This document shows positions 1 through 64,000 of a DNA stretch of 64,000 bases, one piece after another (the first letter of the stretch is position 1; each line of letters opens with the position of its first letter). The stretch is taken from positions 4,303-68,302 of the forward strand of contig JAIRWX010000021.1 of NCBI GenBank assembly GCA_031268655.1, written 5' to 3'. A model generated the notes under the pieces. It had not been told where the DNA came from. It searched no databases and was given only the letters and a program-made list of their open reading frames with translations. The stretch is from Helicobacteraceae bacterium. GTDB lineage: Bacteria; Campylobacterota; Campylobacteria; Campylobacterales; SZUA-545. The position numbers were made by a program, and so were the translations under genes.

Positions 1-37
1 CAAAAGGCGCGGCGGTTTTGATTAGCGCGAGGCATCT

Positions 38-1513
38 GTGTATGGAGATGAGAGGCGTGCAAAAACAGGGCGCGGTTACCACCACCTCCGCTTTGCGCGG
101 CATATTTCTGAAAGATATAAGAGCGCGCGAGGAGTTTACGAGTCTGGCTGGAATGTCGCTAAAGGATCGATTCTGAAAGCGTCGCTCGCTCGCGTCCGCG
201 CCAGAATAAAAACCGCGCCGCTTGGCGCGCCTTTTGGAAGAGCGCTCAAAATTGCCTCCACGCATATTGTCGGCTCCGGACTCAAAGTCGGAATCGGCGA
301 TATGGTGCGCGTGGAAGGCGGCGGTTACAACTGCCCCGTGCTTGGAATGATCACCGCGATCGACGAAGAGGGATTTATAATAACGCCGTTTGGCTTCGTC
401 GAGGGGCTGAAAACGGGCGACGCGATATACAAAGAAGAACAGGGCATGGGAATCGGCGTGAGCAAAGCGATGCTGGGACGGGCGCTAAATCCGTTCGGCG
501 CGCCGATCGACGGCGGAAAAGAGATCGCGTTTAGCGAATGGCGACCGATGCTGCGTCCCCCGATCGCGCCGATGAAACGCGAGCCAATCCGCGAAGTGCT
601 GGCGACGGGCGTACGGGCGATCGACTCCTTTTTAACGACCGGTAAAGGACAAAAGACGGGCATTTTTGCGGGATCGGGCGTGGGTAAATCTACTTTGATG
701 GGTTTGCTGGCGCGAGGAAGCTCGGCGCAGATTAAAGTGATCGCGTTGATCGGCGAGCGCGGTCGGGAGATCCCGGAGTTTATCGAAGAATCGCTAGGCG
801 GCGATCTGACAAATACCGTGATTGTCGCGGCGACGAGCGACGACAGTCCGCTTATGCGCAAATTCGGCGCGTTCGCCGCTATGAGCGCCGCGGAGTATTT
901 CAAAGATCAGGGCTACGACGTGCTGTTTATGATGGACAGCGTTACGCGCTTTGCGATGGCGCAAAGAGAGATCGGCTTGGCGCTCGGCGAGCCGCCCACC
1001 AGCAAGGGCTATCCCCCAAGCGTTTTCAGTATCCTGCCGCAACTGATGGAGCGCGCGGGAAACGAAAAAGGCAAAGGAAGCGTTACGGCGTTTTTCACCG
1101 TGCTTGTCGAAGGCGACGATATGAGCGATCCCATAGCCGATCAGGCGCGTTCTATTTTAGACGGGCATATCGTCTTGAACCGCCGTTTGAGCGATCAGGG
1201 CTTGTATCCTCCGATCGATATTCTCTCCTCCGCTTCGCGCCTGATGTACAATCTGATTAACGACGATCATAAAGACGCGGCTAGGTCTGCCAGACGAATT
1301 CTGTCGCTGCTGCGCGATAACGAAACTCTGGTCAGGATAGGCGCTTATACGCCCGGAAACGACAAAGAGCTGGATAACGCTTTGAAAATTAAGCCTTTTT
1401 TGGAACAATTTACATCTCAGGACAAGCCCGACAAAAAGGCGTTTAACGATCTGGTCGCCGAAATGTCGGCGATCGTTTGTCCGGAAAAACAGAAAGGGAG
1501 CGTAAAAAAATGA
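38..1513 (+). CDS. fliI: Flagellar export ATPase FliI (T3SS/F1-type ATPase)
   Basis: 491-aa ORF with Walker A GSGVGKST, a Walker B region [12 protein letters not shown], and the conserved ATPase core. The start is uncertain: GTG at 38, or an in-frame CTG at 173 placed 6 nt after AAAGGA. Confidence 0.9.
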
Positions 1514-2049
1514 ACAAAAAAGCGCTGATGCCGCTTGCCAACGGATTTGAAGAGATTGAGGCGATCACTATTATAGATATTTTGCGCAGAGCGGGCGTGG
1601 AGGTTGAAATCGCCGGACTTGGGCGATACGAGGTGCTGGGCGCGCACAGCATAGCCGTAGGCGCGGAAACGACGATAGAGGACGCCGAGGGCGACGATTT
1701 CGATCTGATCGTTCTTGCCGGCGGACACGAAAACGCGATGAGTTTGTCTTCCGACGCGGCGACGCAGCGAACGCTTCGCAAAATGCGCGATAAAGGCAAG
1801 CTGATCGCCGCTATATGCGCCGCGCCGATCGCGTTGGCGCAGGCGGGCGTTATTTCAGGCGATTTTACCTGCTTTGACGGCTACGAAGGAGGCATCGAAG
1901 GCTCCTACAAGCGCGAAAGAGTGGTTGAAAGCGGCAATCTAATCACGTCGCAAGGTCCCGGAACAGCCGCCGATTTCGCCTTCGCGCTGGTTACAAGATT
2001 GCAAGGCGAGGAGATGACCGCGCAACTGAAGCGAGCTATGTATTTCTGA
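1510..2049 (+). CDS. DJ-1/PfpI (ThiJ) family protein
   Basis: [19 protein letters not shown]-terminus and an AAICAAP nucleophile-elbow cysteine. The ATG overlaps the fliI stop (ATGA at 1510-1513). Confidence 0.8.
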   Translation: MNKKALMPLANGFEEIEAITIIDILRRAGVEVEIAGLGRYEVLGAHSIAVGAETTIEDAEGDDFDLIVLAGGHENAMSLSSDAATQRTLRKMRDKGKLIAAICAAPIALAQAGVISGDFTCFDGYEGGIEGSYKRERVVESGNLITSQGPGTAADFAFALVTRLQGEEMTAQLKRAMYF

Positions 2050-2124
2050 ACGGTCGATCGCGTCGCCTTAAACGCTAAAAACGCGGCTTTGAGGCGAAGG
2101 TCAGCGCGCATATAAGTTTTTTTC

Positions 2125-2130
2125 TATAAT
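2125..2130 (+). promoter_or_regulatory. Candidate -10 box TATAAT upstream of the cytochrome c gene
   Basis: tttcTATAATaat lies 41 nt upstream of the ATG at 2171. A GAGGGGG Shine-Dalgarno sits at about 2155-2161. Confidence 0.35.
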
Positions 2131-16003: not shown

Positions 16004-17107
16004 TTACGCGCTAAAGCGAAAATGCATAACGTCGCCGTCCTGCACGATATAATCCTTGCCCTCCAATCGCATCGCTCCCGCCTCTTTTGCCTTCGCTTCG
16101 CCGCCAAATCGTATAAAATCGTCGTAACCAATCACTTCGGCTCGTATAAACCCTTTTTCAAAGTCGTTGTGGATTACGCTCGCCGCTTTGGGCGCTTTCC
16201 AGCCTCTGCGAATCGTCCACGCGCGCGCCTCTTTCGCGCCCGCCGTAAAAAAACTTTGCAACCCGAGAAGCGAAAAGCCTTTGCGGATAATCAAATCAAG
16301 CCCGCTCTCGCTCGCGCCAAGCGCGGCTAAATACTCGCTACGCTCGTCGTCGGTAAATCCCGCCATCTCCTCTTCGGCTTTCGCGCAGATCGCGATTGTC
16401 TCCGCGCCGCGATCGGCGGCGTAGCGCTCCACCGCCGCCACATAGTCGTTTTTATTCGCGACGGAGCTTTCGTCCATATTCGCGCCGAAGATCACGGGCT
16501 TGGAACTAAGCAGTCTCGCCTCTTTTATCAGCGCCTCCAACGCGTTTGCGTCGGCAAAACTAAAGCTCGACGCTCGTCCGCCTTCGTTCAGATGGTTCAA
16601 GAGAGCCTGCGCCGCGTCTAACTGCGCCTTCGCCTCCTTGTCCAGACTGCGCGCTTTTTTAGCGATCGCGTCGATCTTTTTGTCCAAAGATTGAATGTCG
16701 GCGAGAATCAGCTCCGTTTCGATCGTCTCTATATCGCGGATCGGATTGACAGAGCCGTCAACGTGGGCGACGTTCGCGTCGTCAAAACAGCGCACCACGT
16801 GCAGTAGCGCCTCGCACTCGCGGATATTGGACAGAAACTGATTGCCAAGCCCTTCGCCCGCGCTCGCGCCCCGCGCAAGCCCCGCAATATCGGTAAACTC
16901 GGCTTGCGCGTTGACCACCCGAGCGGGATTAACGATTTTTGCCAGCGCCTTTAGCCTCGCGTCCGGCACCGCCGCGATCGCTTTGTTTGGCTCGATCGTG
17001 CAAAACGGATAGTTCGCCGCCTGAGCTTTTTGCTCTTTGATCAGCGCGTTGAAGGTCGTGGACTTGCCCACGTTGGGAAGCCCGACAATGCCTATGCTAA
17101 ACGCCAT
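16004..17107 (-). CDS. ychF: Ribosome-binding ATPase YchF
   Basis: [13 protein letters not shown]-loop, Obg-like GTPase core, and a C-terminal TGS-like [16 protein letters not shown]. Confidence 0.9.
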
Positions 17108-18543
17108 TACAACCTCTCAAGCCAATCGACTACCCAGCGTACCGCCGCGCCGCTCGCGCCAAATTGATTAACGCCCCACGCTTTTTCCACGTAGCTTGGT
17201 CCCGCTACATCAAGGTGCGCCCATTTATCGCGGTTTTTCTCCTCGATAAACTCGCTTAAAAATAACGCCGCCGTGATTGCGCCGCCGTAACGAACCGAAG
17301 CGCAGTTGCTTATATCCGCGATCTCGCTTTTGAGCAGCTTTTTCAGATGTCTGTTAAACGGCAGTTTCGCCGCCAACTCGCCGCTATGTTCGGCGGCTTT
17401 CAAAAGCGACTCTTTTAGATCGTCGTTAAAGCCCATCACGCCGCTTGTGTATTCGCCAAGCGCCACTACGCAAGCGCCCGTCAACGTGGCGAGATCGAGT
17501 ATGCGATCAAGATTTGAAACCCGCTCCTGCGCGTAACATAGGCAATCGGCGAGGACTAAACGCCCCTCGGCGTCCGTGTTTTTCACCTCGATAGTTTTGC
17601 CGTTTTTCGCTCTAAGCACGTCGTCGGGTTTATAGGCGTTGCCGCCGATCATATTCTCGGTCGCGCCCACGACGACGTGAATCTCGACGGGCAGTTTCAG
17701 CCGAGCCGCGATTGTAATAACGGCGATCGCCGCCGCGCCGCCGCTCATATCAGCCTTCATCGTCGTCATATAATCGGCGGGCTTCAGGCATAGCCCGCCG
17801 CTGTCGTAAGTAAGCCCCTTGCCTACGATCGCGATCGTTTTTTTAGGCTTGTTCGGCTTGTAGGTCAGATGTATCAGGCGCGGGGCGCAAGCGCTCGCTC
17901 GGCTTACCGCCAAAAACGCCTCCATGCCGTTTGCTCGCAGATAGTTTTCGTCGCGAATCTCGCACACGATCTTATATTGTTCGGCGACCTTTTGCGCCTC
18001 GTTGGCAAGCGCCGACGGAGTCATATCGTAGGGAGCGCGATTTACGAGATCGCGCGCGAAATTCACCCCTTCGGCAACAATCGCGACATAGTCTATAGCC
18101 GCTTTAACGGCGTTCTCGTCGATCTTCGCGCCGTAATAGTTTTCCGCGTCAAAATAGATCGTTTCAAGCGATCGCTCTTTTGGTTTCGATTTGTACTCGA
18201 CAAACTCGTAAGCGCCAAGCGCCAGACCAAAGGCGATCGCTTTGGCTACGTCCGCTCCGCTTTTATCGTAAACGCCGATCGACGCGCTTTTTATCTTAAG
18301 CGTTTTCAGAACGCCGACGGCTTTCGCCGCCGCTATGCGAAAACTTTCGAGGTCGTTCTCGTCTTCCACGCCAACATACAGCTCGCCTTTTTCGGCAAAC
18401 AGCGCCGCGCTTTCGTCCGCGCCGTCGAAGCCAACCTTCTCAAGCAGCTCGCGATCGCCGACAAACGAACCGTTCAGATCTTTTTTTAAGGTAAAAATAA
18501 CCCGTATGTCCGCCTTGGCGCGAGCGTTAAACTCAATTTTCAT
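17107..18543 (-). CDS. pepA: Leucyl aminopeptidase (M17)
   Basis: NTDAEGRLVLAD signature and VGKGLTYDSGG. The start is taken at the internal ATG (MKIEFNA). The upstream 72 codons of the ORF-track ORF look like read-through. Confidence 0.9.
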   Translation of the reverse strand: MKIEFNARAKADIRVIFTLKKDLNGSFVGDRELLEKVGFDGADESAALFAEKGELYVGVEDENDLESFRIAAAKAVGVLKTLKIKSASIGVYDKSGADVAKAIAFGLALGAYEFVEYKSKPKERSLETIYFDAENYYGAKIDENAVKAAIDYVAIVAEGVNFARDLVNRAPYDMTPSALANEAQKVAEQYKIVCEIRDENYLRANGMEAFLAVSRASACAPRLIHLTYKPNKPKKTIAIVGKGLTYDSGGLCLKPADYMTTMKADMSGGAAAIAVITIAARLKLPVEIHVVVGATENMIGGNAYKPDDVLRAKNGKTIEVKNTDAEGRLVLADCLCYAQERVSNLDRILDLATLTGACVVALGEYTSGVMGFNDDLKESLLKAAEHSGELAAKLPFNRHLKKLLKSEIADISNCASVRYGGAITAALFLSEFIEEKNRDKWAHLDVAGPSYVEKAWGVNQFGASGAAVRWVVDWLERL

Positions 18544-18648
18544 CACATATCTCTCCGACAAAAATGCGCCGATCTTACTCAAAAAGCGATTACGACGGCG
18601 ATTAACGCTATGAAACAAGGCTTTTGCCTGAGATAAAAAGCGCCTATT

Positions 18649-18657
18649 TGCTAGACT
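18649..18657 (+). promoter_or_regulatory. Extended -10-like box TGCTAGACT upstream of ilvE
   Basis: The box lies 31 nt upstream of the ATG at 18688, with an AAGGAAAG Shine-Dalgarno between them. Confidence 0.3.
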
Positions 18658-18687
18658 AGCGAAACTTTTTACGAAGGAAAGCTTGTT

Positions 18688-19614
18688 ATGGCTCTCAAGG
18701 AATCGCAGTATATCTGGCTCGACGGCGAATTTGTCGCGTGGAAAGAGGCGAAGATTCACGTCTTATCGCACTCGTTGCACTACGCCAACTCCGCTTTCGA
18801 GGGAGTTCGCGCCTATCCAACCGATAAAGGGCTAGCGATCTTTCGTCTGAAAGATCACACCAGGCGGCTGCTAAACACCTGCAAAATGTCGCTCTTGAAC
18901 TGCCCGTACGATTTTGACGCGCTTAACGCCGCGCAGATCGAGTTGCTACGCAAAAACGTTTTCGCTCCCAAAACCAGCGTCTATATTCGTCCGATCGTGT
19001 TTGTCGGCTACGGAGTGATGGGAGTCTATCACCTCAACTCTCCCATCAGCGCGGCGATCGCGGCGTGGGAGTGGGGCGCTTACCTTGGCGACGAGGGGCT
19101 GGAAAACGGCATTCGCGTAAAGATCAGCTCCTGGGCAAGAAACTCCGTCAAATCAATGATGGGCAAAGCTAAAGTCGCCGCCAACTACCTCAATTCGCAG
19201 ATGGCTAAATGCGAGGCGATCGAGGCGGGTTACGACGAGGCGTTGCTGCTCGATAGCGAAGGGTTTATCGCCGAAGGCAGCGGAGAGTGTTTTTTTATCG
19301 TCCGCGACGGCGTCTTGATCACGCCGCCAAGCGACAACGCGCTTGAGTCGATTACGCAGGATAGCGTTATTAACATCGCCCGCGAGCTTGGCGTTTCTAT
19401 TGAACGCCGCCGTATAACCCGCGACGAGGTATATATAGCCGACGAAGCGTTTTTTACAGGAACGGCGGCGGAGATCACGCCTGTGCGCGAAGCGGACGCC
19501 CGTCCGATCGGCGAAGGAAAACGGGGAGAATTAACGCAAAAATTACAAGAGGCGTATTTTGACGTCGTTTATGGCAGAAACGACAAGTTCTCGCGCTTCT
19601 TGACTTTGATATAG
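18688..19614 (+). CDS. ilvE: Branched-chain amino acid aminotransferase (class IV)
   Basis: Class IV aminotransferase pattern (SHSLHYANSAFEGVRAY, EGSGECFF). Confidence 0.9.
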   Translation: MALKESQYIWLDGEFVAWKEAKIHVLSHSLHYANSAFEGVRAYPTDKGLAIFRLKDHTRRLLNTCKMSLLNCPYDFDALNAAQIELLRKNVFAPKTSVYIRPIVFVGYGVMGVYHLNSPISAAIAAWEWGAYLGDEGLENGIRVKISSWARNSVKSMMGKAKVAANYLNSQMAKCEAIEAGYDEALLLDSEGFIAEGSGECFFIVRDGVLITPPSDNALESITQDSVINIARELGVSIERRRITRDEVYIADEAFFTGTAAEITPVREADARPIGEGKRGELTQKLQEAYFDVVYGRNDKFSRFLTLI

Positions 19615-19626
19615 GAAAGGAACAAA

Positions 19627-20691
19627 ATGCCCGCGGATATGAACGATTATTTTAAGAGGAATCCAAACGGCGGAGGTTCTAAACCCCGCCCACCCGGTTT
19701 AGCGCCCGATTTTTTTAAGAATTTCGGCGGAAAAGGCATCGCGGTTTATATCGCGATCGCGGTTATCGCTTTGCTGATTTTCGCGCGTCCGTTTGTGATT
19801 ATCAATTCGGGCGAAGTCGGTATTTTGGCGACGCTGGGAAAATATCAGGAAACGCCGCTTAATCCGGGTTTTCACATCATCGCGCCCTTTATTCAAGCGG
19901 TGATCGTGCAGGATACAAAAACTCGCGTCGTTAATTACAGCGCGTCGGAATCTTTAGCCGATCGGCGCGGAATCAACGAACGGGAAATGATAAAAGTTTT
20001 AGACTCTCGCGGTCTTGAAGTGAGCGTAGAACTTACCGTGCAGTACGCTCTTCGTTCCGAAAGCGCGCCCGCGGCGATCGCCTCTTTGGGCTTAAACTGG
20101 GAAGATAAGATGATCAATCCCGCAGTGCGCGACGTGGTGCGAAGCGTGATCGGCGCTTACGCCGCCGAAGAGCTGCCGCAAAGACGCAACGACATCGCTA
20201 CGGCGATCGAGATGAGTTTGAAAGAGACGATCGGCAAGATCGGAGGCGATCCGATCGAGCTTAGAGGCGTTCAATTACGCGGGATCGTTTTACCGCCAAA
20301 AATTAGAGACCAGATAGAACAGGTTCAGCTTGCTAGACAAGAGGCGGAGCGATCGCTAAATATGGTCAAACAAGCCGAACAAGAAGCGCTTCGTAAAGCC
20401 GCCGAAGCGAAAGGTTTGGCCGACGCTATGCGGATTCAGTCGCAAGGTATCGCCGATCGCACGCGAATTGAAGCCGACGCGCAGGCTAAGGCGAACGCGC
20501 TGATCGCCGCCTCGCTGACGAGTAATCTGCTTGTTTTGCGCCAGATCGAGGTACAGGGCAAATTTAACGAAGCGCTGCAGGCGAATAAAGACGCGAAGCT
20601 GTTTTTAACGCCGGGCGGCGCGGTGCCGAATATATGGGTCGATACAAAAGACGCGCAACGCGCAAGCTCGGCGGCTTCGTCGGCAAAATAG
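19627..20691 (+). CDS. SPFH/band 7 (prohibitin-like) membrane protein
   Basis: N-terminal TM, an SPFH domain, and a coiled-coil Ala/Glu/Gln-rich C-terminus. Confidence 0.8.
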   Translation: MPADMNDYFKRNPNGGGSKPRPPGLAPDFFKNFGGKGIAVYIAIAVIALLIFARPFVIINSGEVGILATLGKYQETPLNPGFHIIAPFIQAVIVQDTKTRVVNYSASESLADRRGINEREMIKVLDSRGLEVSVELTVQYALRSESAPAAIASLGLNWEDKMINPAVRDVVRSVIGAYAAEELPQRRNDIATAIEMSLKETIGKIGGDPIELRGVQLRGIVLPPKIRDQIEQVQLARQEAERSLNMVKQAEQEALRKAAEAKGLADAMRIQSQGIADRTRIEADAQAKANALIAASLTSNLLVLRQIEVQGKFNEALQANKDAKLFLTPGGAVPNIWVDTKDAQRASSAASSAK

Positions 20692-21356
20692 TGGCGATCG
20701 ACTGGGCTAAAAATCCGCTTGTGCCCGTAGCGGCGCAAGATTACGACTCAAAAGAGGCGCTGATGATAGCCTACGCCGACAAACAGGCGTACGACCTGAC
20801 GCTGAAAACCGGTTTTGCGCACTACTTTTCGCGCTCTCGCAATCGGATCTGGAAAAAAGGCGAGCAAAGCGGGAACACGCAAAAAATCGTCGACGTTCTG
20901 TGCGACTGCGATCAAGACAGCCTGCTTTATATCGTCGAACAAAAAGGCGCGGCTTGTCATACGGGACACAAAAGCTGTTTTTTCACAAAAGCGGCGAACG
21001 GCGAAATAATCGACGAGCGCATAGCCGATCCCGCGAAGTTGTACGGCGTAGTCGATCGTCTCTACCATACGATCTTGGAGCGCAAAAAAGCCGATCCAAA
21101 CCTCTCCTATGTCGCCTCGCTGTTTATCGGCGGCGAAAACGCGATACTGAAAAAAGTAACCGAAGAGGCTGGCGAGCTGATCTTGTCGGTTAAAGACCGC
21201 GACAAAGAGCAAATTGTACGCGAAGCCGCCGATCTGTTGTTCCATACGCTGATCGCCCTCGCGTCCAAAGAGATCGCGCCCGATCTTATCCGCGCCGAGC
21301 TGACGCGCCGCGAAGGGATAAGCGGCGTTGTCGAAAAGTCTCTAAGAAAGCGCTAG
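20691..21356 (+). CDS. hisIE: Bifunctional phosphoribosyl-AMP cyclohydrolase / phosphoribosyl-ATP pyrophosphatase
   Basis: HisI motif GAACHTGHKSCFF and a HisE helical domain (EEAGELILS, EAADLLFHTLI). The likely GTG start overlaps the upstream stop (TAGTG). The ORF-track start at 20634 is an alternative. Confidence 0.85.
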   Translation: MAIDWAKNPLVPVAAQDYDSKEALMIAYADKQAYDLTLKTGFAHYFSRSRNRIWKKGEQSGNTQKIVDVLCDCDQDSLLYIVEQKGAACHTGHKSCFFTKAANGEIIDERIADPAKLYGVVDRLYHTILERKKADPNLSYVASLFIGGENAILKKVTEEAGELILSVKDRDKEQIVREAADLLFHTLIALASKEIAPDLIRAELTRREGISGVVEKSLRKR

Positions 21357-21358
21357 AG

Positions 21359-42500: not shown

Positions 42501-42666
42501 TGTATTCGGCGATAATCTCGTTGACGTTTTTGCGGGCGTTAGCTCCAGCCGTATTCATTCTATCCAGAGCCGTCGGCAGTATCGGGGTTATATCTATGTC
42601 GGCGTTCTCCGTCCGCTCCGCCATCTTGCGCAGGTTGAACAATTTGTGCGCGTTGCGGTTGATCAT
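39562..42666 (-). CDS. Giant multidomain protein of the phage/ICE polyvalent-protein type, internally duplicated
   Basis: 1034-aa uninterrupted ORF. It carries two copies of an IDLVWG...G(W/Y)G(I/L)A...WLLTA(F/Y) module (aa 178-296 and 806-908). It carries two copies of GFETD(D/E)xG..YNP..G..GAIG.....KLF (aa 512-547 and 973-1012). A SMSNNALAAYGEGKKPLSKW segment is also present. Confidence 0.55.
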   Translation of the reverse strand: MINRNAHKLFNLRKMAERTENADIDITPILPTALDRMNTAGANARKNVNEIIAEYNELIDSYNGKDIEGNIIGRDEFAADILGVALRRLNGLKDGGVEDFGRGIERIIEAADESRQGSLFGEQIAPFDRIDAALEFYGERDSIALAELANKVRAIDDAANAERGMNAPRAETTDAEKGAFGTIWRGFEGRPNEAVAHLLQTREGEAPAALRDGRIGEIDLVWGEAGTGHSDGWGIAKLERFHPEMLDKLEIINELPITSVTDNRVVLQNDRYRAVVQLNFKGDKKTWLLTAFDKTDGGVKRIDTNAVAPRDDQALSQTARNETIAQEGARSQEIDEAVARDLREKDGAAKAGEPSQNEKLTQEAAQFDSDVKLIRLAGLDNQKRFKEAIASGSISLNDRMIAEQTLIYKAALPFTEQIQKLADKRGAPNAYDKIIEHIKEGDSAAINRALKEMHYRDDGEIVNIAQEAAELFEGNTSPYPNARVIERIIKRREAELEARKGFVNPLTARAIVGSGLGFETDDEGALRYNPAKGLAGAIGVSYAPKLFRLSKEGAPIGAQTSRANTRFNKAANLQERGADIIKAGYSPDYSMSNNALAAYGEGKKPLSKWTRKDILDRAKEVLKDAEDTDIEIADLEKLPTPLLKQLTLDMKEWHHTSKRYNKTNFYDVKLNGLTKADIESRLASKRTAKQTDEIFKKNPELIEDERFRGHYEVIRDDGVIMLDSLMQREGSVDRAEMARRIKADPLYIDKETIGQLKDDVANTETHIKEIIAENGDPELAERLTNRLKSKRLRLGRFSIDFMLKAGKGEVSGAFYRPETGYIDLVWGKEGANGYGLAHIIEKRRSEYKGDMAKTTEFLRKLPETIANSAVDPTRSQGGKIALVDTKTTAIIALERNERDAWLLTAYQDARNKKNPYAQTIGDAQAPAEQGKRIDTIKALPLGVQKKNFTAGAARSQEKAVKEGTTLYSSPHIGGAILGSMTGFETDEDGNISYNPRRGAMGAIGSVGVVKLFGLRERPPLAPSFTRMFISSQRN

Positions 42667-44605: not shown

Positions 44606-44680
44606 GCGGGAATAGCTCAGGGGTAGAGCACAACCTTGCCAAGGTTGGGGTCGCGAGTTCGAATCTCGTTTCCCGCTCCA
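44606..44680 (+). tRNA. tRNA-Gly (GCC)
   Basis: Cloverleaf readable by eye: acceptor gcgggaa/ttcccgc, anticodon loop ttGCCaa, T-loop ggttcgaatc-like, encoded CCA. Confidence 0.9.
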
Positions 44681-44805
44681 ACGTAAACCGCGAAAGCGGG
44701 TAGCTTTGATTGCATTTGCGGCGTTGTTCCCAAGCTATTTGAGCGCGCCGACTAACCTATCCGCGCCGCGAGTAACTTAAGAATTAAAGCCTAGCGGACA
44801 AAAGC

Positions 44806-44893
44806 GCCCGAGTGGTGAAACGGTAGACACACAGGACTTAAAATCCTGAGGACGAATGCGTCCGTGCCGGTTCAAGTCCGGCCTCGGGCACCA
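44806..44893 (+). tRNA. tRNA-Leu (UAA)
   Basis: Acceptor gcccgag/ctcgggc, anticodon loop ctTAAaa, long variable arm, encoded CCA. Confidence 0.9.
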
Positions 44894-44938
44894 GACCTTT
44901 TACAATTGGAGGTTGTTCGTAACGCGCTAGACGTTTGC

Positions 44939-45012
44939 GGCGGCGTGGCCAAGCGGTAAGGCAAGAGCCTGCAAAGCTCTGACCCCCGGTTCGAATCCGG
45001 GCGCCGCCTCCA
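44939..45012 (+). tRNA. tRNA-Cys (GCA)
   Basis: Acceptor ggcggcg/cgccgcc, anticodon loop ctGCAaa, T-arm ccggttcgaatccgg, encoded CCA. Confidence 0.9.
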
Positions 45013-45104
45013 AATATTGTTTAACGCTCAAGTCCGCAGAACTTCGTTCTCGCCCCAATCGATTCGCCGTTAGCGACTTGGCGACAACGTTTGTTTAAGC
45101 GATT

Positions 45105-45194
45105 GGACAGATGGCCGAGCGGTTGAAGGCGCACGCCTGGAACGCGTGTATAGGATAAAACCTATCGAGGGTTCGAATCCCTCTCTGTCCGCCA
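45105..45194 (+). tRNA. tRNA-Ser (GGA)
   Basis: Acceptor ggacaga/tctgtcc, anticodon loop ctGGAac, long variable arm, encoded CCA. Confidence 0.85.
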
Positions 45195-45297: not shown

Positions 45298-46293
45298 CTA
45301 AACTTGCGACGAAAACGGCAGAGTTTGAACGAAGTTTGTCATAAAATCCCAATCGGGCTGGCGGTTTTTGGTGGGAAGTTTTAGAAACGATACTTTCATA
45401 CGGTTGCTGTCCCATTTGCGACCATAATTAAAACGATATTTTTCTTTACGAATAATGACTGCCAAAAACAGAGCAATACTTGGTACAAGCTTGAATTTTG
45501 GATAAAGCACATTTATATCATCAGAAGCATAAAATGGTTTTGGTTGGTAAAATGCTTCGCCAACAGAGCCGTTATAACTAACTGTGATTGTGTTCCCTTC
45601 GTGAATTGCGTCTTGTCCAATGTGATCGCGATAGCCGTTATTTTTATCTATGGCGGCAACGAATGGCGTGTCGCCTTGTTCAAAATCGGCTTCTACAAGA
45701 CGCTTGCCTTTTTTGACTTCAAAAAGCTCATCAAATCGGTATGTTGCCCACTCGGCAGTTTTTAATTCTGGCGTTGGTAAGTTTTGAGCTGGTTTTGTGA
45801 TTTTCGCTATCGTCTCAATATTTACTACTTGCTTCCATTCGTTTGGCATTAACGCTGGTACGAGAACCTTTTTTATACGGTCGCCTTTTGGCTTGCGATT
45901 GTAATTAAAACGGTATCTGTTTTTAGTAATGCAAAATGCGTAATAAAGTTTTTCTTCAATGGACATTTTTTGTTTTGGAAGTAAAACATAAATATCGCTA
46001 TTTGGCACAAATACCTCAGTGGAAACATAAGAGAAAGTGTGACTGCCTTGTCCATTAGTAGAAACATAAATTGTATCTGCTGGAAAAATATATTTGTCGT
46101 CAATAAAACGCTTATCAACAAACGCATCTATTGAAGTGTTTTGTTTGTGTGAAGGACGAATAAAATGTATATGGTTTTCTGATATTTTGGAATGTTCGCG
46201 TTCAACAGAATTAGACGCAATGCCCGACTTGAAGTTAAACAATTTTTGCAATTCTATTAGTTGCGTATTACTCATAATTGCCATGCGTCTCAT
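45298..46293 (-). CDS. Restriction-modification specificity subunit (two half-TRDs, BcgIB-like size)
   Basis: 331 aa with an internal duplication: KNRYRFNYNRKPKGDRIKKVLVP versus KEKYRFNYGRKWDSNRMKVSFLKLP. It overlaps the upstream methylase-nuclease gene. The real start may be MSNTQL at 46275. Confidence 0.75.
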   Translation of the reverse strand: MRRMAIMSNTQLIELQKLFNFKSGIASNSVEREHSKISENHIHFIRPSHKQNTSIDAFVDKRFIDDKYIFPADTIYVSTNGQGSHTFSYVSTEVFVPNSDIYVLLPKQKMSIEEKLYYAFCITKNRYRFNYNRKPKGDRIKKVLVPALMPNEWKQVVNIETIAKITKPAQNLPTPELKTAEWATYRFDELFEVKKGKRLVEADFEQGDTPFVAAIDKNNGYRDHIGQDAIHEGNTITVSYNGSVGEAFYQPKPFYASDDINVLYPKFKLVPSIALFLAVIIRKEKYRFNYGRKWDSNRMKVSFLKLPTKNRQPDWDFMTNFVQTLPFSSQV

Positions 46294-48133
46294 CTAAACC
46301 GCTAACCTTGAAAACAACAAATTTTTTTACTGCTTTAGCAAAATCATCGATCGTCAAATTGCTATAATCGGTTTCCATATAGGCTTCAGCGCACCATTCG
46401 TTATTGGCGGTTACATTTTTTAACACCGACAAGCCGGCGATATCTTTGTGATTGCGATAATTGGTAATCCATTGGCGTTTGATTTCGTTTTCAAATTTTC
46501 CGAATAGGTCAATACGTCCTTTGTTTTTACGCTTCACAAAGCCGTCGTTTTTATAGTAGCCAAAATAGACTTCTTTGTCGGCGGGGTGCGGACGCTTGGC
46601 GGTGAAAACTATAATACAACTAACGACGCCGACTTTGGAATTGAAAAACAACTCGTCGGGCATTGAAAAGACGGCTTCCAGCGTGTGATTTTTCAAAATC
46701 TTTTTCTTATATTCCCAAACTTTGCCGCTCGTTGCTAGGGCTTCTTGCATTGGCACAATGGCAACGCACTTTCCGCCTTGCGTTAAGCATTCCAAGTTAG
46801 CGAGAATAAACTCATATTCGTCCGTATCAGTTTTCTTATCTGCTTTGTATGGCGGATTAAGCAAACCGACATTAGGGTTTTGTTTTTTTACGGCAGATTT
46901 TATTTCATCATCGAAACAATCGCCCAAATAAATGTTGGTCTTACCATCTTGGTGTATGAACATATTTGAACAAGCAAGCGCAAAAATTTTATCGGAGTAT
47001 TCCACGCCGATAAGTTGATTTTGCTTGACGTTTTTAATTTTTTCGCTATCGCCTTTGGCGTCTTTAATCATTAAATTCATCGCCGATACCAAAAAACCGC
47101 CCGTGCCGGTGCAGTTGTCATAAACAATACTATCTTTATTAACTTCGGCGACTTCCGCCATAAACTCGGTGATATGCGGCGGAGTTAAAACAATTCCCAA
47201 ACCCTTATCGGAATTTGCATAGCGCAAAAACTCAATATAAAGCTGCCCCAAAACGTCAAAATATTCATGCGTTTTTATAAAATCTTTAATATTATCGTTA
47301 ATGTCGGCGATCACTTCTTTAAGCGCATCCTTTTTATTTGAAAGCGTAGAGTTTGTTTTTAAAAACGAAAAGCGCGCGTCTAAAACTTCAAGTTTTCTAT
47401 CGCCGACTTTACCATTTTCAAATTCGTTATGAACAGTTTTGACAAGATATTCTGCAAGTTGTTTTGCTTCTTTATAACTCGCGTAGGTTTTTACAAATCC
47501 TTCGTTTTCCAAAGCAATTAAAACGCAACTGATTAACAGCGCGCGCTCGTCTTCGGCAATTTTCCAGCTATGTAATTTTTCGTTAAGCGTTTTGGAAAAT
47601 ACCATTAAAGTTTGATAATCTTGACGGAACTTTTCGGGGCTTTTGATATAACCGTCGTATAAATCGCTTAGCGACAGAAGTTTGTCGGCGAAAATTGGCG
47701 TGGCGGTTTGTTCGCCTTTTAATTGGAGAAAATAGGAAACCTTGAGGGTTTGCGGGGTTTCGCCGCTTACGGCAATAGAGAGTACATCGTAATTTTTTGA
47801 GAGAAATGAACTATAAAGTTTTACGCCGTCCGCCGCGTAATCGTCGTATTGATCGCCAGTTTTGCTTTCATGATATTTAGTATCGGCTTTGCACTCGACG
47901 GCGACGATAAAATCAGAGTTTTTGCGAGATTGAATAATAAAATCGGGGCGACCCTTGCCGGAACCGTCTTTTTTGGAAGCCCCCGCAAGCGATTTTTTGA
48001 TTTTCTCGTTTTGGCTAGTTTGGCGTTCATAAATATAATCATGCAAATTAGCGCCGAGAGCTATGGCATCAGCGTGGTTTTTGACAAAATCTTCAAAGAT
48101 CGTTTCAGTATTAGCTTCATTCTTTGTAGACAT
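46268..48133 (-). CDS. Fused PD-(D/E)xK endonuclease / gamma-class N6-adenine methyltransferase (BcgIA-like RM subunit)
   Basis: The N-terminus has GRPDFII...VAVECKAD (a PD...ExK motif). SAM motif I is VYDNCTGTGGFLV and the catalytic motif is LLNPPYK. At 621 aa it has no TRD of its own. Confidence 0.8.
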   Translation of the reverse strand: MSTKNEANTETIFEDFVKNHADAIALGANLHDYIYERQTSQNEKIKKSLAGASKKDGSGKGRPDFIIQSRKNSDFIVAVECKADTKYHESKTGDQYDDYAADGVKLYSSFLSKNYDVLSIAVSGETPQTLKVSYFLQLKGEQTATPIFADKLLSLSDLYDGYIKSPEKFRQDYQTLMVFSKTLNEKLHSWKIAEDERALLISCVLIALENEGFVKTYASYKEAKQLAEYLVKTVHNEFENGKVGDRKLEVLDARFSFLKTNSTLSNKKDALKEVIADINDNIKDFIKTHEYFDVLGQLYIEFLRYANSDKGLGIVLTPPHITEFMAEVAEVNKDSIVYDNCTGTGGFLVSAMNLMIKDAKGDSEKIKNVKQNQLIGVEYSDKIFALACSNMFIHQDGKTNIYLGDCFDDEIKSAVKKQNPNVGLLNPPYKADKKTDTDEYEFILANLECLTQGGKCVAIVPMQEALATSGKVWEYKKKILKNHTLEAVFSMPDELFFNSKVGVVSCIIVFTAKRPHPADKEVYFGYYKNDGFVKRKNKGRIDLFGKFENEIKRQWITNYRNHKDIAGLSVLKNVTANNEWCAEAYMETDYSNLTIDDFAKAVKKFVVFKVSGLDETHGNYE

Positions 48134-48399: not shown

Positions 48400-48488
48400 C
48401 GGGCAGGTGGCAGAGCGGTTGAACGCATCGGTCTTGAAAACCGACGAGGGCAAAACCTCCGTGGGTTCGAATCCCACCCTGCCCGCCA
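48400..48488 (+). tRNA. tRNA-Ser (UGA)
   Basis: Acceptor gggcagg/cctgccc, anticodon loop ctTGAaa, long variable arm, T-arm gtgggttcgaatcccac, encoded CCA. Confidence 0.85.
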
Positions 48489-50459: not shown

Positions 50460-51239
50460 CTAATCGGCGACCAGTCTGAGCGCGAAAAGCAGAACGGGAG
50501 CGGCAAACAGATAGCCGTCTATACGATCTAGCGCGCCGCCGTGTCCGGGCAAAATAGAGCCGCTGTCCTTGACCTGCGCCTTGCGCTTAAGATAGCTTTC
50601 AAACAGATCGCCAAACACGGAGGCGATCGCGCATGCAATTGTGATCGCTAATATCGTCCAAAACCCAATCGAAAATGGCGCGATAACGCCCGCGATCGTC
50701 CCAAATATCGCCGCCGCGGTGATTCCGCCGGCTACGCCCTCAATCGTTTTGTTTGGGCTTGACGGGCTGAAAGGGGTTTTGCCCAGCGCCTTACCCGCGT
50801 AATAAGCCCCCGCGTCGCAAGAAAGCGTGATCGCCAGCAGCCAGATATAAGCGCCGATTCCAAAGTCCGTGTACAATGAAAATAAAAACAGCATTGGCGC
50901 GGTCGGATACAAAATTGGCAAAGCGACTTTAAGATCGCGTTTTTGATCAAGCGCCACGATAGCCGCTAAAACAAGAATCGCAAGAGCTACGACCTCGATC
51001 GGACGCGGATAGAAAATCGCCGCGAGCCACGCGACGGCGCTCGCGCACCAGAGCCTTAGATTGCCTCTGTACCCAAACAGCGCGATCGCTTCCCACGAAG
51101 CGACGGCAAAAATAATCGTCAACAGCGCGCCGATCGCCCAAACGGAATGGAACGCGATCGCGATCGCCGCAACCAAGAGCAATATCAAAGCGGTGCGCCA
51201 TCTTTTGGCGTCGCTTTTTAACCGCGCTAACAGACCCAT
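50460..51239 (-). CDS. cdsA: Phosphatidate cytidylyltransferase
   Basis: C-terminal signature DLFESYLKR...KDSGSILPGHGGALDRIDG. Confidence 0.9.
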   Translation of the reverse strand: MGLLARLKSDAKRWRTALILLLVAAIAIAFHSVWAIGALLTIIFAVASWEAIALFGYRGNLRLWCASAVAWLAAIFYPRPIEVVALAILVLAAIVALDQKRDLKVALPILYPTAPMLFLFSLYTDFGIGAYIWLLAITLSCDAGAYYAGKALGKTPFSPSSPNKTIEGVAGGITAAAIFGTIAGVIAPFSIGFWTILAITIACAIASVFGDLFESYLKRKAQVKDSGSILPGHGGALDRIDGYLFAAPVLLFALRLVAD

Positions 51240-54121: not shown

Positions 54122-54970
54122 TTACGCAAATAACGTCGTCTCGCCGACCTCGCGTCGCATGTTTATAGCGCCGATCGGATAGTTCGCTATAAACAATTCT
54201 CTGCCGTTTTGATCGGAGGCTTCGGTTATATTGCGCATGCCGTAGATTTGCGTCCAAGATCTGATATTAGCGAAAGAAAAAAGCTCTCGTATGTATCTGC
54301 AATCGTCATAGGTGATCAGCCATTTATACGAGCAGTTTCTCATAATGTCGGCAAAACGTATATGATCAAACGATTTATGTAACTTTCCGTTCTTGCCGTA
54401 AAGCGAAGATTTTGCCGTAGAATAATATGGCGGGTCAAGAAATATAAAAACGTTTTCGCCGCTCTTTTTGACAATCTCTTCATAGTCCTTATTTGCAATC
54501 GCCGCATTGTCTAAAACGCCGTTTAAGTTGCGTAGCCTTTCGATGCTGCTATATGTAAATCTGCCCTTGAAAGCCGCCTCGCTGAACCCGCCGCTTAAGC
54601 TCGTGCCCGAAAAGGTAACGCGGTTATAAATAAAAAACGCCGCCGCCCGCTCTAAATCATTAAAGCCCTCTGTGTTTTCGTTTAGAAACCGATACAGCTC
54701 TTTGCCTACGCTGTATTCGTTTTTCCATTCAAGTATCTTTTCTATTAAACAATCGCCGTTTGCCTGTACCGCTTTCCAAAATAGATAAAGCTCCGCATAG
54801 AGATCGTTTATCCAGTATTTTTTATTAGGATACAGCTGTTTAAGATATATAAATACCGATCCTCCGCCCAAAAAAGGCTCTCTATACTCGTCAAATGGAG
54901 GAATCAGGTTTGCGATTGTCTTAATCGCCCTGCTTTTGCCGCCAGGATAACGTAGCGGGCTTTTGATCAT
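54122..54970 (-). CDS. Dam-like (alpha-class, D12) N6-adenine DNA methyltransferase
   Basis: LRYPGGKSR, motif I EPFLGGGSVF and motif IV FLDPPYY occur in the alpha order. Target specificity cannot be read from the sequence. Confidence 0.85.
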   Translation of the reverse strand: MIKSPLRYPGGKSRAIKTIANLIPPFDEYREPFLGGGSVFIYLKQLYPNKKYWINDLYAELYLFWKAVQANGDCLIEKILEWKNEYSVGKELYRFLNENTEGFNDLERAAAFFIYNRVTFSGTSLSGGFSEAAFKGRFTYSSIERLRNLNGVLDNAAIANKDYEEIVKKSGENVFIFLDPPYYSTAKSSLYGKNGKLHKSFDHIRFADIMRNCSYKWLITYDDCRYIRELFSFANIRSWTQIYGMRNITEASDQNGRELFIANYPIGAINMRREVGETTLFA

Positions 54971-55755
54971 GACGCGCCTTTTATTTCAACTATAAATCCG
55001 TTTTCTCGCGCTTCGCAAAAAAGCGTTTCGATCAGTTGCTCCGTATTGGGAGACATTTTGTTATCGGCGGCGAACGTTCGCGCCGATTCCGGACTGTCCG
55101 ACGATACGCCGCCTTTTATCTTTGTCGACATAAGTCTCAGAACCGCTATATGCTTTATCTTTTTGCCGTTTAGAGTTGTTTCGCGCAAATTGGCGTACAA
55201 AATCATTTTTAACAGTCCGTCTTTTATATCTCCTTTGCTTGGCAAAACGGCGTTCTTGGCATGTTTGCTTTCGATCAGATAAAGTAGTTCGCTATCGACG
55301 CGCGTTTCATCAACGGTAAAATAATAAAGTCCGCCTAGGTAATTACCGATTGTTATTTTCGATTTTGTATTGGTCGTCAAAAACTCTTTTGGCTGCGTCG
55401 CGGCAAGCTCTCTTGCCTGCGCCTCTTTTGCTTTAAGCCGCGAGAAACTCATAAATTCTGCAATGTCTTTGTCAATTTTTGCTTTGAAACCTTCCATTCC
55501 GCTTGCGCTATGTAAAACGATCTTGGTTTTTTGCTCTATTAGCGCGTAACTGTCCTTTGCTTTACCGATTAAACATGGCAGACTGCTTTTTAACTCGTTT
55601 AAGTTCCAATGCAACGCAGAACTATGGCATTTCTTGATTTCTTTGATTTTCGATACTATGTATTCATTGTCAAACTTTTGATCCGTTATTTTTGTACCAT
55701 TTGCCTTCGCGTCGGAATAATAGGCGAGTATAACGAAAACGTCAAGCAAAGACAT
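54967..55755 (-). CDS. Putative restriction endonuclease, C-terminal part or subunit (PD-(D/E)xK-like)
   Basis: 262 aa with VDETRVDSELLYLIESK (D...ExK) at nt 55264-55311. An ATGA overlap joins it to the methylase gene. Confidence 0.5.
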   Translation of the reverse strand: MSLLDVFVILAYYSDAKANGTKITDQKFDNEYIVSKIKEIKKCHSSALHWNLNELKSSLPCLIGKAKDSYALIEQKTKIVLHSASGMEGFKAKIDKDIAEFMSFSRLKAKEAQARELAATQPKEFLTTNTKSKITIGNYLGGLYYFTVDETRVDSELLYLIESKHAKNAVLPSKGDIKDGLLKMILYANLRETTLNGKKIKHIAVLRLMSTKIKGGVSSDSPESARTFAADNKMSPNTEQLIETLFCEARENGFIVEIKGAS

Positions 55756-56056
55756 AAAAGAAACGCTCCCGCTGCAAAAAATCTCGATCGCCGTCTTTTC
55801 CTTCGTCTTTAACTATGGGAATAACGGCGATTTTTTTAGCGTAATTAAGCGAGTTATAGACTCTTTCGTAGGGATACGATCGCGTTCGTTTGGGCGATAC
55901 CCATTTTGAAACGGCGGCGACGTATGTTCCGTCCTTTACGGCGCAACAAGAGGGCGATTGGTTCACGTCAAACGAGACGAGATCGCGTTGCGGTAAGGAT
56001 TCGCCAAGAAACGTTTTATATTTAATAACGCCCGTAACCCGCCCTTGAACTCCCAT
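55742..56056 (-). CDS. Putative restriction endonuclease, N-terminal part or separate small subunit
   Basis: 104 aa with a strong Shine-Dalgarno (GGAGGGA 5 nt before the ATG). It overlaps the next ORF by 14 nt in another frame. That fits either a frameshifted single gene or a coupled pair. Confidence 0.4.
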   Translation of the reverse strand: MGVQGRVTGVIKYKTFLGESLPQRDLVSFDVNQSPSCCAVKDGTYVAAVSKWVSPKRTRSYPYERVYNSLNYAKKIAVIPIVKDEGKDGDRDFLQRERFFYVFA

Positions 56057-61362: not shown

Positions 61363-63183
61363 ATGGTTCGCACTGGAAAGCGAGGTATCCGAAAAGAAGA
61401 GTTACTTTTTTTTCAGAAGCTTCACGTAAGATTTGCCATCTGCGCTATCGTGGTGGTTGTAATTATGACCGCCGCCATTCTTATCATGTTCACCGAAGAC
61501 TACCGCGCAATGATCAACGAATCGGCAAAGACTTCTATGGAGAAGTTAAGCCGATCCATTTTTCAGACTTTGTTTGCGACTATGAGCAACGGCGGCTCGT
61601 CCGAACAGGTACTCAGCGCGCTCGAGCTGGTTAAAGGCGAAAACTACGTTGAAAGTCTGGAACTGTACGTTTCAAAAGCGGCGTTCATTGATCACAACGC
61701 AAGGCGAGACAAGCTTCCAGACGAAATTAAACATCTCATATCAAGCGGCGGCGATCGCGATCTTATTGTCGTCGATGAAGACGGCGTTAGAAGAATTCGA
61801 CATCTAAAGCCGTTTGTGGCGACAGAAAGCTGCATGATATGTCATACCAGAGCCAAAGTCGGCGATATGCTCGGCGTGATGGATTTAACTTTTTCGCTTG
61901 CCGAATACGACAAAATGTCAAGCGACTCGATCAAGCGGGTCGCGCTAATTATTTTAGCGCTTGCGATCGGCGGCGGCGTTCTTTTATTTCAACTCTCCTC
62001 AAGGCTGATCTTCGCGCCTATCAAAGACCTTGAAAACGCCACCGATCGCCTTGCAAAAAACGCGGGCGATCCGAACGTAAGGCTTGGCGAATGGGGCAAA
62101 AACGAGTTTGGGGTTATTGCCGATCACTTTAATCGTTTTATCGAGGCGGTTTATGAGATTAACCGCAAGCTAGAACAAGAAGAGACCAAAGTTAAGCGAC
62201 TATTAGAAGATCGCGAAGCGGAGATTGAAAGACGTACGGCGGAGATACGCGAGCTTAACCGCGAACTCAGCCGCCATCTGGAGCTGGTCGACGAGAACGT
62301 GATCACCACAAGAACCAATGCAAGCGGCGTTATCACCTATGTTTCCACCGCGTTTTGCAACATCTCCGGCTACTCCAAAGAGGAGCTTTTAGGGCAGACG
62401 CACAATATCGTGCGCCATCCCGACATGCCTGGCGAAGTTTTTACGGATCTCTGGAATACGATCAAACAAGGCGCGACTTGGAGCGGCGAAATTAAAAACC
62501 GCAAGAAAAGCGGAGGTTTTTTCTGGGCTCAAACCGCGATCTCGCCTATCTTTTCCGATACAAGCGCTATCAAGGGCTATCTCGCGATCAGACACGACAT
62601 CTCGTTGCAAAAAGAGCTGGCGGATACCTTGCAGAAACTAAGCGAGGCGACAAAGCAGTCGCACACGGACTCGCTGACGGGTATAATGAATCGTTTGAGA
62701 ATCAACGAGCTGTTGCAGATGGAGATAGATCGCGCGGCAAGATACGAGGAACATTTGAGCGTGGCTTTGCTGGATATAGACCATTTCAAAACGGTCAATG
62801 ATACCTACGGACACCTCGTAGGCGATCAAACGCTTAAGACGCTCGCGCAGATTCTTACGGCGCGAACCCGTAAAACGGACTTGGCGGCGCGCTGGGGCGG
62901 CGAGGAGTTTTTGCTCATATTGATCAATACTCCGCAGGAGTGGGCGACGCGTAAAATGGAGCAATTACGCGCAACCGTCGAATCGCACGATTTTGGCGGC
63001 GCTCCGAAAATAACGGTCAGCATCGGCGTATCCTCCTATAAGCGCGGCGACACGATTGAAAGTCTGGTCGGACGCGCCGACGTAGCTTTGTACCTAGCCA
63101 AAGAGAGCGGCAGAAACCGCGTGGAGAGCGCATCGAGCGACGAACTAAAACAGATTGACGTCGATTTATCGACGGAAACGTAG
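61363..63183 (+). CDS. Sensor diguanylate cyclase: TM-CxxCH periplasmic module-TM-HAMP-coiled coil-PAS-GGDEF
   Basis: CMICH at nt 61831-61845. GGDEF domain has RWGGEEF preceded by an RKTD I-site-like motif. Confidence 0.85.
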   Translation: MVRTGKRGIRKEELLFFQKLHVRFAICAIVVVVIMTAAILIMFTEDYRAMINESAKTSMEKLSRSIFQTLFATMSNGGSSEQVLSALELVKGENYVESLELYVSKAAFIDHNARRDKLPDEIKHLISSGGDRDLIVVDEDGVRRIRHLKPFVATESCMICHTRAKVGDMLGVMDLTFSLAEYDKMSSDSIKRVALIILALAIGGGVLLFQLSSRLIFAPIKDLENATDRLAKNAGDPNVRLGEWGKNEFGVIADHFNRFIEAVYEINRKLEQEETKVKRLLEDREAEIERRTAEIRELNRELSRHLELVDENVITTRTNASGVITYVSTAFCNISGYSKEELLGQTHNIVRHPDMPGEVFTDLWNTIKQGATWSGEIKNRKKSGGFFWAQTAISPIFSDTSAIKGYLAIRHDISLQKELADTLQKLSEATKQSHTDSLTGIMNRLRINELLQMEIDRAARYEEHLSVALLDIDHFKTVNDTYGHLVGDQTLKTLAQILTARTRKTDLAARWGGEEFLLILINTPQEWATRKMEQLRATVESHDFGGAPKITVSIGVSSYKRGDTIESLVGRADVALYLAKESGRNRVESASSDELKQIDVDLSTET

Positions 63184-63189
63184 TCTTAC

Positions 63190-64000
63190 ATGATCGATCT
63201 TAAAAGAGTCGAGCGGGACTACGAGACGTTTTATGCGCAGATCAGCCGTAAAATGGTCGAACGGACGCTTCTGGAATCGTTGAAAACCAAACTGCTCGAA
63301 GCTAAACGACTAAGGCGCGAGCTCGAGGAAAAGCAGACGCTGCAGAATCGCCTCAGCAAGGAGTTCGGCGCGCTTAAAGTAAGCGGCGGGGACGTTTCCG
63401 CATTGAACGCCGAGGTCGTCGAAAACAAGGGGACGATTATCGCGCTTACCGATCTGTTGCGATCGGCGGAGAACGCGCTCGACGTCGAGTCGCTGAATCT
63501 GCCAAACCCGCCCGATCCCGACGCGCCAAACGGCAGGGACGAAAACGACAACGTAGAACTAAAAAGAGTACTATCGCCGCGCATTTTTGATTTCAGTCCA
63601 AAACCGCATTACGAGCTTGGCGTAGAGCGCGGCTGGCTTGATTTTGAGCGCGCCGCCAAGATCGCGGGGGGTCGATTTACCGTTATGCGGGGTTTCGCGG
63701 CAAAGTTAGAACGCGCGCTGATCGCCTATATGATCGACTTTAACGAGGCTCGCGGTTTCAAGGAGGCATGGCTGCCTGTGCTGGTTAATCGCAGATCGCT
63801 TATCGGCACGGCTCAACTGCCCAAATTTGAGGCGGATTTATATCTTGCGGAAACGGGCGATCTGCCTGAAAACGATCTCTTTTTAACGCCCACCGCCGAA
63901 GTGCCGCTTGTTAATCTGTTTTACGACGAAATTATCCCCGAAGAGGAGCTGCCGATCAAACTGACCGCGCACACGCTATGTTTTCGCAAAGAGGCTGGCA
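63190..64000 (+). CDS. serS: Seryl-tRNA synthetase (5-prime part, truncated by window end)
   Basis: My own translation from the ATG at 63190 gives an N-terminal coiled-coil arm, then GGRFTVMRG, LPKFEADLY, LTPTAEVPL and CFRKEAG class II motifs. No stop occurs before 64000. Confidence 0.9.
   Translation, partial: MIDLKRVERDYETFYAQISRKMVERTLLESLKTKLLEAKRLRRELEEKQTLQNRLSKEFGALKVSGGDVSALNAEVVENKGTIIALTDLLRSAENALDVESLNLPNPPDPDAPNGRDENDNVELKRVLSPRIFDFSPKPHYELGVERGWLDFERAAKIAGGRFTVMRGFAAKLERALIAYMIDFNEARGFKEAWLPVLVNRRSLIGTAQLPKFEADLYLAETGDLPENDLFLTPTAEVPLVNLFYDEIIPEEELPIKLTAHTLCFRKEAG

Follow-up and report, generated by a model that had tools for sequence, protein, structure and literature searches.

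Highly Iterated Palindrome 1 (HIP1) is a long-standing puzzle. To our knowledge, it is regarded as specific to cyanobacteria, and a literature search found no report of HIP1 outside that group. Here, we analyse a 64,000-nucleotide stretch (hereinafter, the window) of contig JAIRWX010000021.1 from a Helicobacteraceae bacterium (assembly GCA_031268655.1), in which the HIP1 octamer, GCGATCGC, and its GATC core are abundant and had been proposed to represent a HIP1-type system. In HIP1-rich cyanobacteria, the octamer exceeds a frame-specific second-order model 15-300-fold (PMC5861425) and is present at 300-2700 copies per Mb, with observed-to-expected ratios (O/E) over base composition alone (order 0) of 55-228 (PMC4390886; Elhai, 2015). 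The comparison presented below indicates that GCGATCGC in the window is probably the palindromic peak of a family of CG-rich words that arise from the compositional grammar of a GC-rich Helicobacteraceae lineage, with no octamer-specific process involved. A real HIP1 in Campylobacterota would have provided a striking natural case for comparison, but the tests speak against one here.

Octamer counts, null models and codon spelling

A scripted search recovered 42 copies of GCGATCGC, exactly at the 42 positions listed in the original prediction, with none missing and none extra, which corresponds to 656 copies per Mb (0.66 per kb, or approximately one per 1.5 kb). Few copies are expected by chance, as had been stated: base composition yields 1.14, that is, an O/E of 37. 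The GC content of the window is 52.1%, rather than the estimated 55% or so, and GATC is less frequent than the suggested one per approximately 60 nt, with 687 sites, or one per 93 nt (2.76x base composition). The other figures given for GATC held: the computed expectation is one per 257 nt (about one per 260 nt had been given), and the count within positions 20041-21000 is again 16. The CGATCG hexamer is present in 198 copies (11.7x base composition). Near-misses of the octamer are commoner than the octamer itself when taken collectively, as asserted, but not singly, each one-mismatch neighbour being present in at most 22 copies.

Under null models that account for short-word composition, most of this excess disappears. 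The expectations for GCGATCGC under Markov models of orders 1-6 are 9.1, 17.3, 28.1, 41.6, 41.3 and 41.8, respectively, compared with 42 observed, so that from order 4 onwards nothing octamer-specific remains. Over order 2 without frames, the O/E is 2.42; when the frame-specific second-order model that served as the published HIP1 null (PMC5861425) is applied to the window, it is 2.13 for GCGATCGC and 2.58 for an unrelated octamer, CGCCGCCG. When each word is compared with the prediction from its own sub-words, only GAT/ATC (1.38), GATC (1.23), CGATC (1.19) and GCGATC (1.13) exceed it, with CGATCG at 0.87 of its pentamer-based expectation and GCGATCGC at 1.00 of its heptamer-based expectation. 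Although GCGATCGC is by far the top palindromic octamer (42 copies versus 16 for the runner-up), the commonest 8-mers overall are nearly level, with 42 copies of GCGATCGC, 42 of CGATCGCG and 40 of CGCCGCCG.

As positive controls, we used two cyanobacterial plasmids, pANL of S. elongatus and pSYSM of Synechocystis. The O/E of the octamer over order 2 is 36x in pANL and 100x in pSYSM versus 2.4x in the window; 58% and 62% of the CGATCG hexamers, respectively, lie inside the octamer versus 21% in the window; and the octamer outnumbers its mean one-mismatch neighbour 27x and 25x versus 5.4x. Site conservation was assessed at orthologous positions in 28 pooled gene pairs, a small sample, in which 11 of 51 GCGATCGC sites are kept; the ratio to the shuffle null, 1.4, falls within the range of 1.0-3.9 spanned by six other CG-rich octamers. 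Thus, the HIP1-type label is not borne out by the order-2 O/E, the rank among 8-mers, the extension of CGATCG, the neighbour ratio or site conservation.

It had been cautioned from the outset that part of the excess must come from codon usage. In its extreme form, whereby the excess is a pure by-product of amino acid content and codon usage, this explanation appears very unlikely. It is true that, of 41 coding copies, 30 spell Ala-Ile-Ala in frame 0, that GCG, ATC and CGC are the preferred codons (60% of Ala, 52% of Ile and 43% of Arg, respectively), and that codon-aware nulls take away most of the 37-fold excess. However, shuffles fall short of the 41 copies observed in the open reading frame (ORF) set: synonymous shuffling that keeps the protein and the per-gene codon counts yields 15.5±3.3 copies, codon permutation yields 7.7, synonymous shuffling that keeps dinucleotides yields 23.5±3.4, and none of 500 shuffles reached 41. 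Furthermore, GATC and CGATCG are enriched in non-coding DNA too. The control octamers CGATCGCG and CGCCGCCG exceed the shuffles by the same factor as GCGATCGC, and we assign the residual to lower-order context effects, not to GCGATCGC itself.

The compositional explanation can be laid out in four layers. In the first, a strand-symmetric neighbour bias raises CpG and GpC and lowers TpG/CpA and CpC/GpG; the dinucleotide odds in the window are 1.75x for CpG, 1.49x for GpC, 1.45x for AA/TT, 0.69x for TG/CA and 0.72x for CC/GG. In the second layer, this bias would set codon usage along with a strict choice at codon junctions. Asp is encoded by GAT in 90% of cases when C follows and in 4% when G follows; Ile is encoded by ATC in 64% of cases when G follows and in 19% when C follows; Ala is encoded by GCG in 82% of cases when C follows and essentially never by GCA in that context; and in 70% of the four-fold codons ahead of ATC, the third base is G. 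Against published dinucleotide ranges, a CpG ratio of 1.75x combined with such neighbour-dependent synonymous choice is unusually strong for a bacterium. In the third layer, Ala- and Ile-rich proteins would supply Ala-Ile-Ala tripeptides, spelled GCG-ATC-GC: in the native-looking genes, 29 of the 40 GCGATCGC copies spell Ala-Ile-Ala, and 29 of the 33 Ala-Ile-Ala tripeptides are spelled GCGATCGC, compared with 10.2 expected from independent codon usage. The fourth layer is a further, mild preference for the GATC core at the DNA level. A family-4 UDG-like gene (27372-28031) was considered as a source of CpG retention, but it is of an ordinary housekeeping type and no inference was drawn from it.

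Several points weigh against this explanation. The density of 656 copies per Mb lies within the HIP1 range, and the order-0 O/E of 37 is under the typical 55-228 and near the values of weak or 'imprecise' HIP1 cyanobacteria (PMC4390886). The agreement with Markov models of order 4 and above leaves room for selection because the pentamers themselves contain the signal, and the synonymous shuffles leave a 1.7-2.6-fold GCGATCGC residual (z of 5-8). The data comprise 64 kb of the source genome and about 107 kb from relatives, and a crude ORF rule was used to call genes and to define the non-coding set. Finally, the neighbour bias itself would be caused by a lineage-specific mutation or repair bias, a step that we infer. 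Nevertheless, it is exceedingly improbable that GCGATCGC is a genuine HIP1 element, that is, a selected, methylation-linked octamer acquired by, or independently evolved in, Helicobacteraceae. The overlap of the raw density and O/E with the low cyanobacterial end and the top rank among palindromes would fit such an element, as would the presence in the window of a methylase of the DmtB type, which belongs to the orphan enzymes of cyanobacteria. However, every octamer-specific test fails, the target of DmtB/M.CbeI is GGCC and not HIP1, and GGCC is avoided in the window, whereas an orphan enzyme would let GGCC be tolerated.

Turning to the distribution of the octamer, the 42 copies represent 39 independent GCGATCGC loci, since five of them overlap within two tandem runs of GCGATC. 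The first run, (GCGATC)3GC at 29928-29947, lies within the minus-strand ORF 29429-30007 and is counted as three overlapping octamers, whereas the second, (GCGATC)2GC at 51154-51167, is counted as two. The densest stretch, with 11 copies, extends from 16662 to 21753 across ychF, pepA, and genes for a class IV aminotransferase, an HflK-like protein, HisIE and a DUF2393 protein, and every copy in it has a unique coding context. Another 11 copies are found between 50161 and 53517, in genes for a Na/H exchanger, a CdsA-like protein, an NFACT-like protein and a sugar transferase. The idea that a longer repeat or mobile element carries GCGATCGC was rejected, given that each of the 42 copies has flanks of its own and that no families of repeats turned up.

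A residual preference for GATC in the lineage

The attribution of the host to Campylobacterota is borne out by both its gene matches and its closest relatives. The window carries genes typical of this phylum, including those for FliI (matching PRK08472), acetolactate synthase (matching PRK08527), chemotaxis and cyclic di-GMP proteins, and the nearest genomes identified via PepA are those of uncultured Helicobacteraceae and Campylobacterales, metagenome-assembled genomes of 48-58% GC. Isolate names such as Nm470_bin29 and Cc175_bin116 point to a termite-gut origin; a literature search found no report on the composition of termite-gut Helicobacteraceae. In eight loci from relatives (L001-L006, L008 and L024), GATC is enriched 2-3x and CGATCG 7-18x, whereas in unrelated loci of about 50% GC, CGATCG reaches only 0.6-1.8x. 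AT-rich Campylobacterota loci contain next to no GATC, with one site in L007 (1-9318, 29% GC) and none in L009 (1-5265, 36% GC). The O/E of GATC thus differs more than 50-fold between branches, amounting to a reversal of GATC usage inside a single phylum.

When tetramers are ranked by their excess over a maximal-order Markov model, GATC comes second (1.22x, z of approximately 8); among pentamers, CGATC comes first. In pooled non-coding DNA of the window and relatives (11 kb), GATC is enriched 1.8x, and CGATCG exceeds base composition 11x and the order-2 expectation 3.3x. Because the preference for GATC is present in non-coding DNA and in relatives, it acts at the DNA level. Its flanks are not confined to those of CGATCG: TGATCA, TGATCG and CGATCG are each 1.7-1.9x over order 2, whereas RGATCY words are depleted (GGATCC 0.07x, AGATCT 0.34x and AGATCC/GGATCT 0.38x), and both patterns recur in the eight related loci named above. 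The RGATCY depletion suggests that this clade avoids words matching a BstYI/XhoII-like restriction specificity.

Could this GATC/YGATCR residual be a weak parallel, reached by convergence, to the cyanobacterial system, maintained via an orphan methyltransferase for GATC (and perhaps also CGATCG) whose gene lies elsewhere in the genome? Under this hypothesis, the sites could help to discriminate strands, control replication or take up DNA, and would be kept by selection or methylation-linked repair. We regard it as unlikely. It is favoured by the ranks of GATC and CGATC under the maximal-order model, by the persistence of the excess in non-coding DNA and its occurrence in all eight related loci, by the flip in GATC usage relative to the AT-rich Campylobacterota and by the conservation of GATC at orthologous positions, which, with a ratio of 1.40 versus a median of 1.16, ranks sixth among 62 abundant tetramers. 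However, this conservation is equalled by that of CGAT, GCCG and CCGA; the effect is only about 1.2x over trinucleotides; and CGATCG, at 0.87 of the pentamer expectation, displays no palindromic synergy of the two half-sites. Moreover, TGATCG/CGATCA, the deamination products of methylated CGATCG, are enriched 1.86x over order 2 instead of being depleted, and on this ground very-short-patch repair at CGATCG was rejected. No GATC methylase, CGATCG methylase, Vsr or MutH is encoded within the 64-kb window, where the sole D12-class enzyme is of the GGCC type; apart from that gene (54122-54970) and a protein with an N6-methylase domain encoded in an islet at 45.3-48.1 kb, the window contains no other DNA methylases.

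Taken as a whole, a methylation-linked origin of the GATC residual is conceivable but doubtful. As for the broader proposition that the high-GC termite-gut Helicobacteraceae clade has independently evolved a GATC-centred (YGATCR) methylation-linked site enrichment, with GCGATCGC as its most visible product, we consider it quite improbable; if true, the YGATCR process would be a weak HIP1 analogue in a phylum in which GATC is all but absent from the AT-rich members. The genome-wide process invoked in the original prediction stands as a lineage-wide bias at the DNA level, given its presence in non-coding DNA and relatives, but not as very-short-patch repair, the signature of which is absent.

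The predicted GGCC methylase cassette and AT-rich or atypical islets

The window had been thought to encode a Dam-like methyltransferase. The gene in question (54122-54970, minus strand) encodes a D12-class enzyme (Pfam MethyltransfD12) that falls under the cut-offs of the Dam models (TIGR00571 of NCBIfam, 101.8 bits versus 114.85; PRK10904, 46.9 versus 441) and is instead a full-length homologue of M.CbeI. The protein matches E. coli Dam with an E-value of 1e-7 and DpnM with 1e-12, compared with 1.3e-82 for PDB 7M6B (49% identity over 271 residues), to which its residues 1-272 align at positions 1-272, with a shared DPPY motif (FLDPPYY). The 7M6B structure is that of M.CbeI from Caldicellulosiruptor bescii, an alpha-class N4-cytosine methyltransferase that shields GGCC from CbeI, a HaeIII isoschizomer (PMC8616854; PMC3425538), and DmtB of Anabaena is 57% identical to M.CbeI and has the same GGCC specificity (PMC3425538). 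Judging from these alignments, the 54122-54970 gene most likely encodes a GGCC N4-cytosine methyltransferase, and, being of the GGCC type, it provides no evidence for GATC methylation. The transfer of the supposed "Dam" gene to the GGCC N4-cytosine methylase family changes what a methylome should look for. An EcoRV-like identity of the enzyme, prompted by the scarcity of GATATC, was dropped after the M.CbeI match.

The near-loss of GGCC from the window fits the predicted specificity. Only eight sites are present (12626, 20418, 39378, 44880, 44947, 45113, 48978 and 60522), three of them in tRNA genes, versus approximately 290 expected (0.03x; z of about -22 against synonymous shuffles), which makes this the most extreme word bias in the window; the methylase cassette itself (54122-56056) contains none. 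Among the relatives, GGCC is at 0.00-0.13x in six loci (L001, L002, L004, L005, L008 and L024), whereas L003 and L006 show no depletion. Adjoining the methylase gene upstream is a candidate nuclease gene (54967-56056, minus strand) split by a frameshift, with ORF 55742-56056 corresponding to residues 1-95 of its homologues and ORF 54967-55755 to residues 102-360. It belongs to a family of proteins of approximately 363 aa without annotated function, and we found no match to it among PDB sequences, Pfam, NCBIfam or the plasmid collection. The relative L024 has an intact 361-aa version paired with a D12 methylase beside ilvD; this different location of the intact pair marks the cassette as mobile. 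The frameshift near 55760-55790 either turned the methylase into an orphan or is an assembly error.

Several further palindromes show strong avoidance relative to their sub-words, namely, TTTAAA (0.05), GGCGCC (0.15), GATATC (0.25), AAGCTT (0.34), CCGG (0.40), TCGCGA (0.45) and CGCGCG (0.49), as does CCAGG (0.21). So many avoided words are consistent with the presence of many restriction systems, as in other Helicobacteraceae.

An AT-rich islet (45298-48133, minus strand; 39% GC) is inserted among tRNA genes, with a cluster of tRNA genes for Gly, Leu, Cys and Ser (44606-45194, plus strand), which holds three of the eight GGCC sites, on one side and a tRNA-Ser gene (48401-48488) on the other. 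Encoded in the islet are a protein of 621 aa whose C-terminal part is an N6-methylase domain and one of 331 aa that carries Type I specificity domains, and no separate restriction subunit is present in it, an architecture that fits the Type IIB (BcgI-like) assignment proposed previously. Another segment is occupied by a 1034-aa ORF (39562-42666, minus strand) that contains a PBECR1 domain, the phage Barnase-EndoU-ColicinE5/D-RelE-like nuclease domain, and has no NCBIfam match.

It had been suggested that the octamer and GATC distinguish native from imported DNA. The underlying counts are correct: the AT-rich islet contains no GCGATCGC and five GATC sites, the methylase cassette contains no GCGATCGC, and the giant ORF contains a single copy, at 41498. 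Their value as a marker is uneven. The five GATC sites of the islet, versus approximately 31 at host density, represent a strong deficit (O/E of 0.5), so that low GATC flags this segment, and the signal is weaker for the giant ORF, where 17 sites (5.5 per kb) versus approximately 34 amount to a moderate deficit; this halved density suggests a mobile-element or phage origin. The methylase cassette, with 15 GATC sites versus approximately 21 at host density, is not set apart because GATC there is at 2x its own composition. The absence of the octamer from an islet of 2-3 kb is uninformative, as host density predicts no more than about 1.3-1.9 copies. All three segments keep CpG at 1.5-2.0x, but two of the three have lost the GATC excess, so that these islets may derive from donors with a similar dinucleotide signature or may be partly ameliorated.

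Relation to known systems

With cyanobacterial HIP1, the window shares the identical 8-bp word at almost the same raw density as pSYSM (0.66 versus 0.64 per kb), in copies that are scattered singly in unique coding contexts, constitute the commonest palindromic octamer and are rarer in apparently imported DNA. In other respects, the two differ. The O/E over trinucleotides is 2.1-2.4 in the window versus 15-300 in the published genomes (PMC5861425) and 36-100 in the control replicons; the octamer is wholly predicted by pentamers and is matched in number by CG-rich octamers that are not palindromes; the share of CGATCG hexamers extended to the full octamer is 21% versus about 60%, with no excess site conservation; and the host is a member of Campylobacterota, with no GATC or CGATCG methylase seen in the 64 kb, whereas HIP1 occurs together with the orphan enzymes DmtA (GATC) and DmtC (CGATCG). 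Thus, a Synechocystis-like raw density of an octamer can arise without an octamer-specific process, and an order-0 expectation inflates the enrichment of a CG-rich palindrome by an order of magnitude when CpG is at 1.75x.

In E. coli, Vsr/Dcm repair skews word frequencies, with CCWGG raised and CTWGG lowered. A mechanism of this type, in which methylase-linked repair increases a recognition site throughout the genome, had been proposed for the octamer, but the window shows no deficit of TGATCG/CGATCA and no vsr-like gene. With the CbeI/M.CbeI system and DmtB of Anabaena, the window has in common that its methylase aligns end to end with M.CbeI, adjoins a candidate nuclease gene and resides in DNA from which GGCC is almost absent; the differences are that the partner gene is frameshifted in the assembly and that the specificity is predicted from sequence. 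That system concerns GGCC, not GCGATCGC.

For the octamer itself, the comparison that we favour is with genome signatures, that is, dinucleotide relative-abundance profiles in Karlin's sense, and the accompanying context-dependent codon bias. As in these, the short-word bias of the window is strand-symmetric, genome-wide and lineage-specific, is common to coding DNA, non-coding DNA and relatives, and is weaker in recently acquired islands. It differs in its unusual magnitude, with CpG at 1.75x and the share of GAT among Asp codons going from 4% to 90% depending on the next base, and in that AT-rich relatives of the lineage have the opposite GATC usage. Overall, the window displays an unusual lineage signature in which CpG is very high, codon choice depends near-deterministically on context, GATC is enriched, unlike in sister lineages, and GGCC is almost entirely lost.

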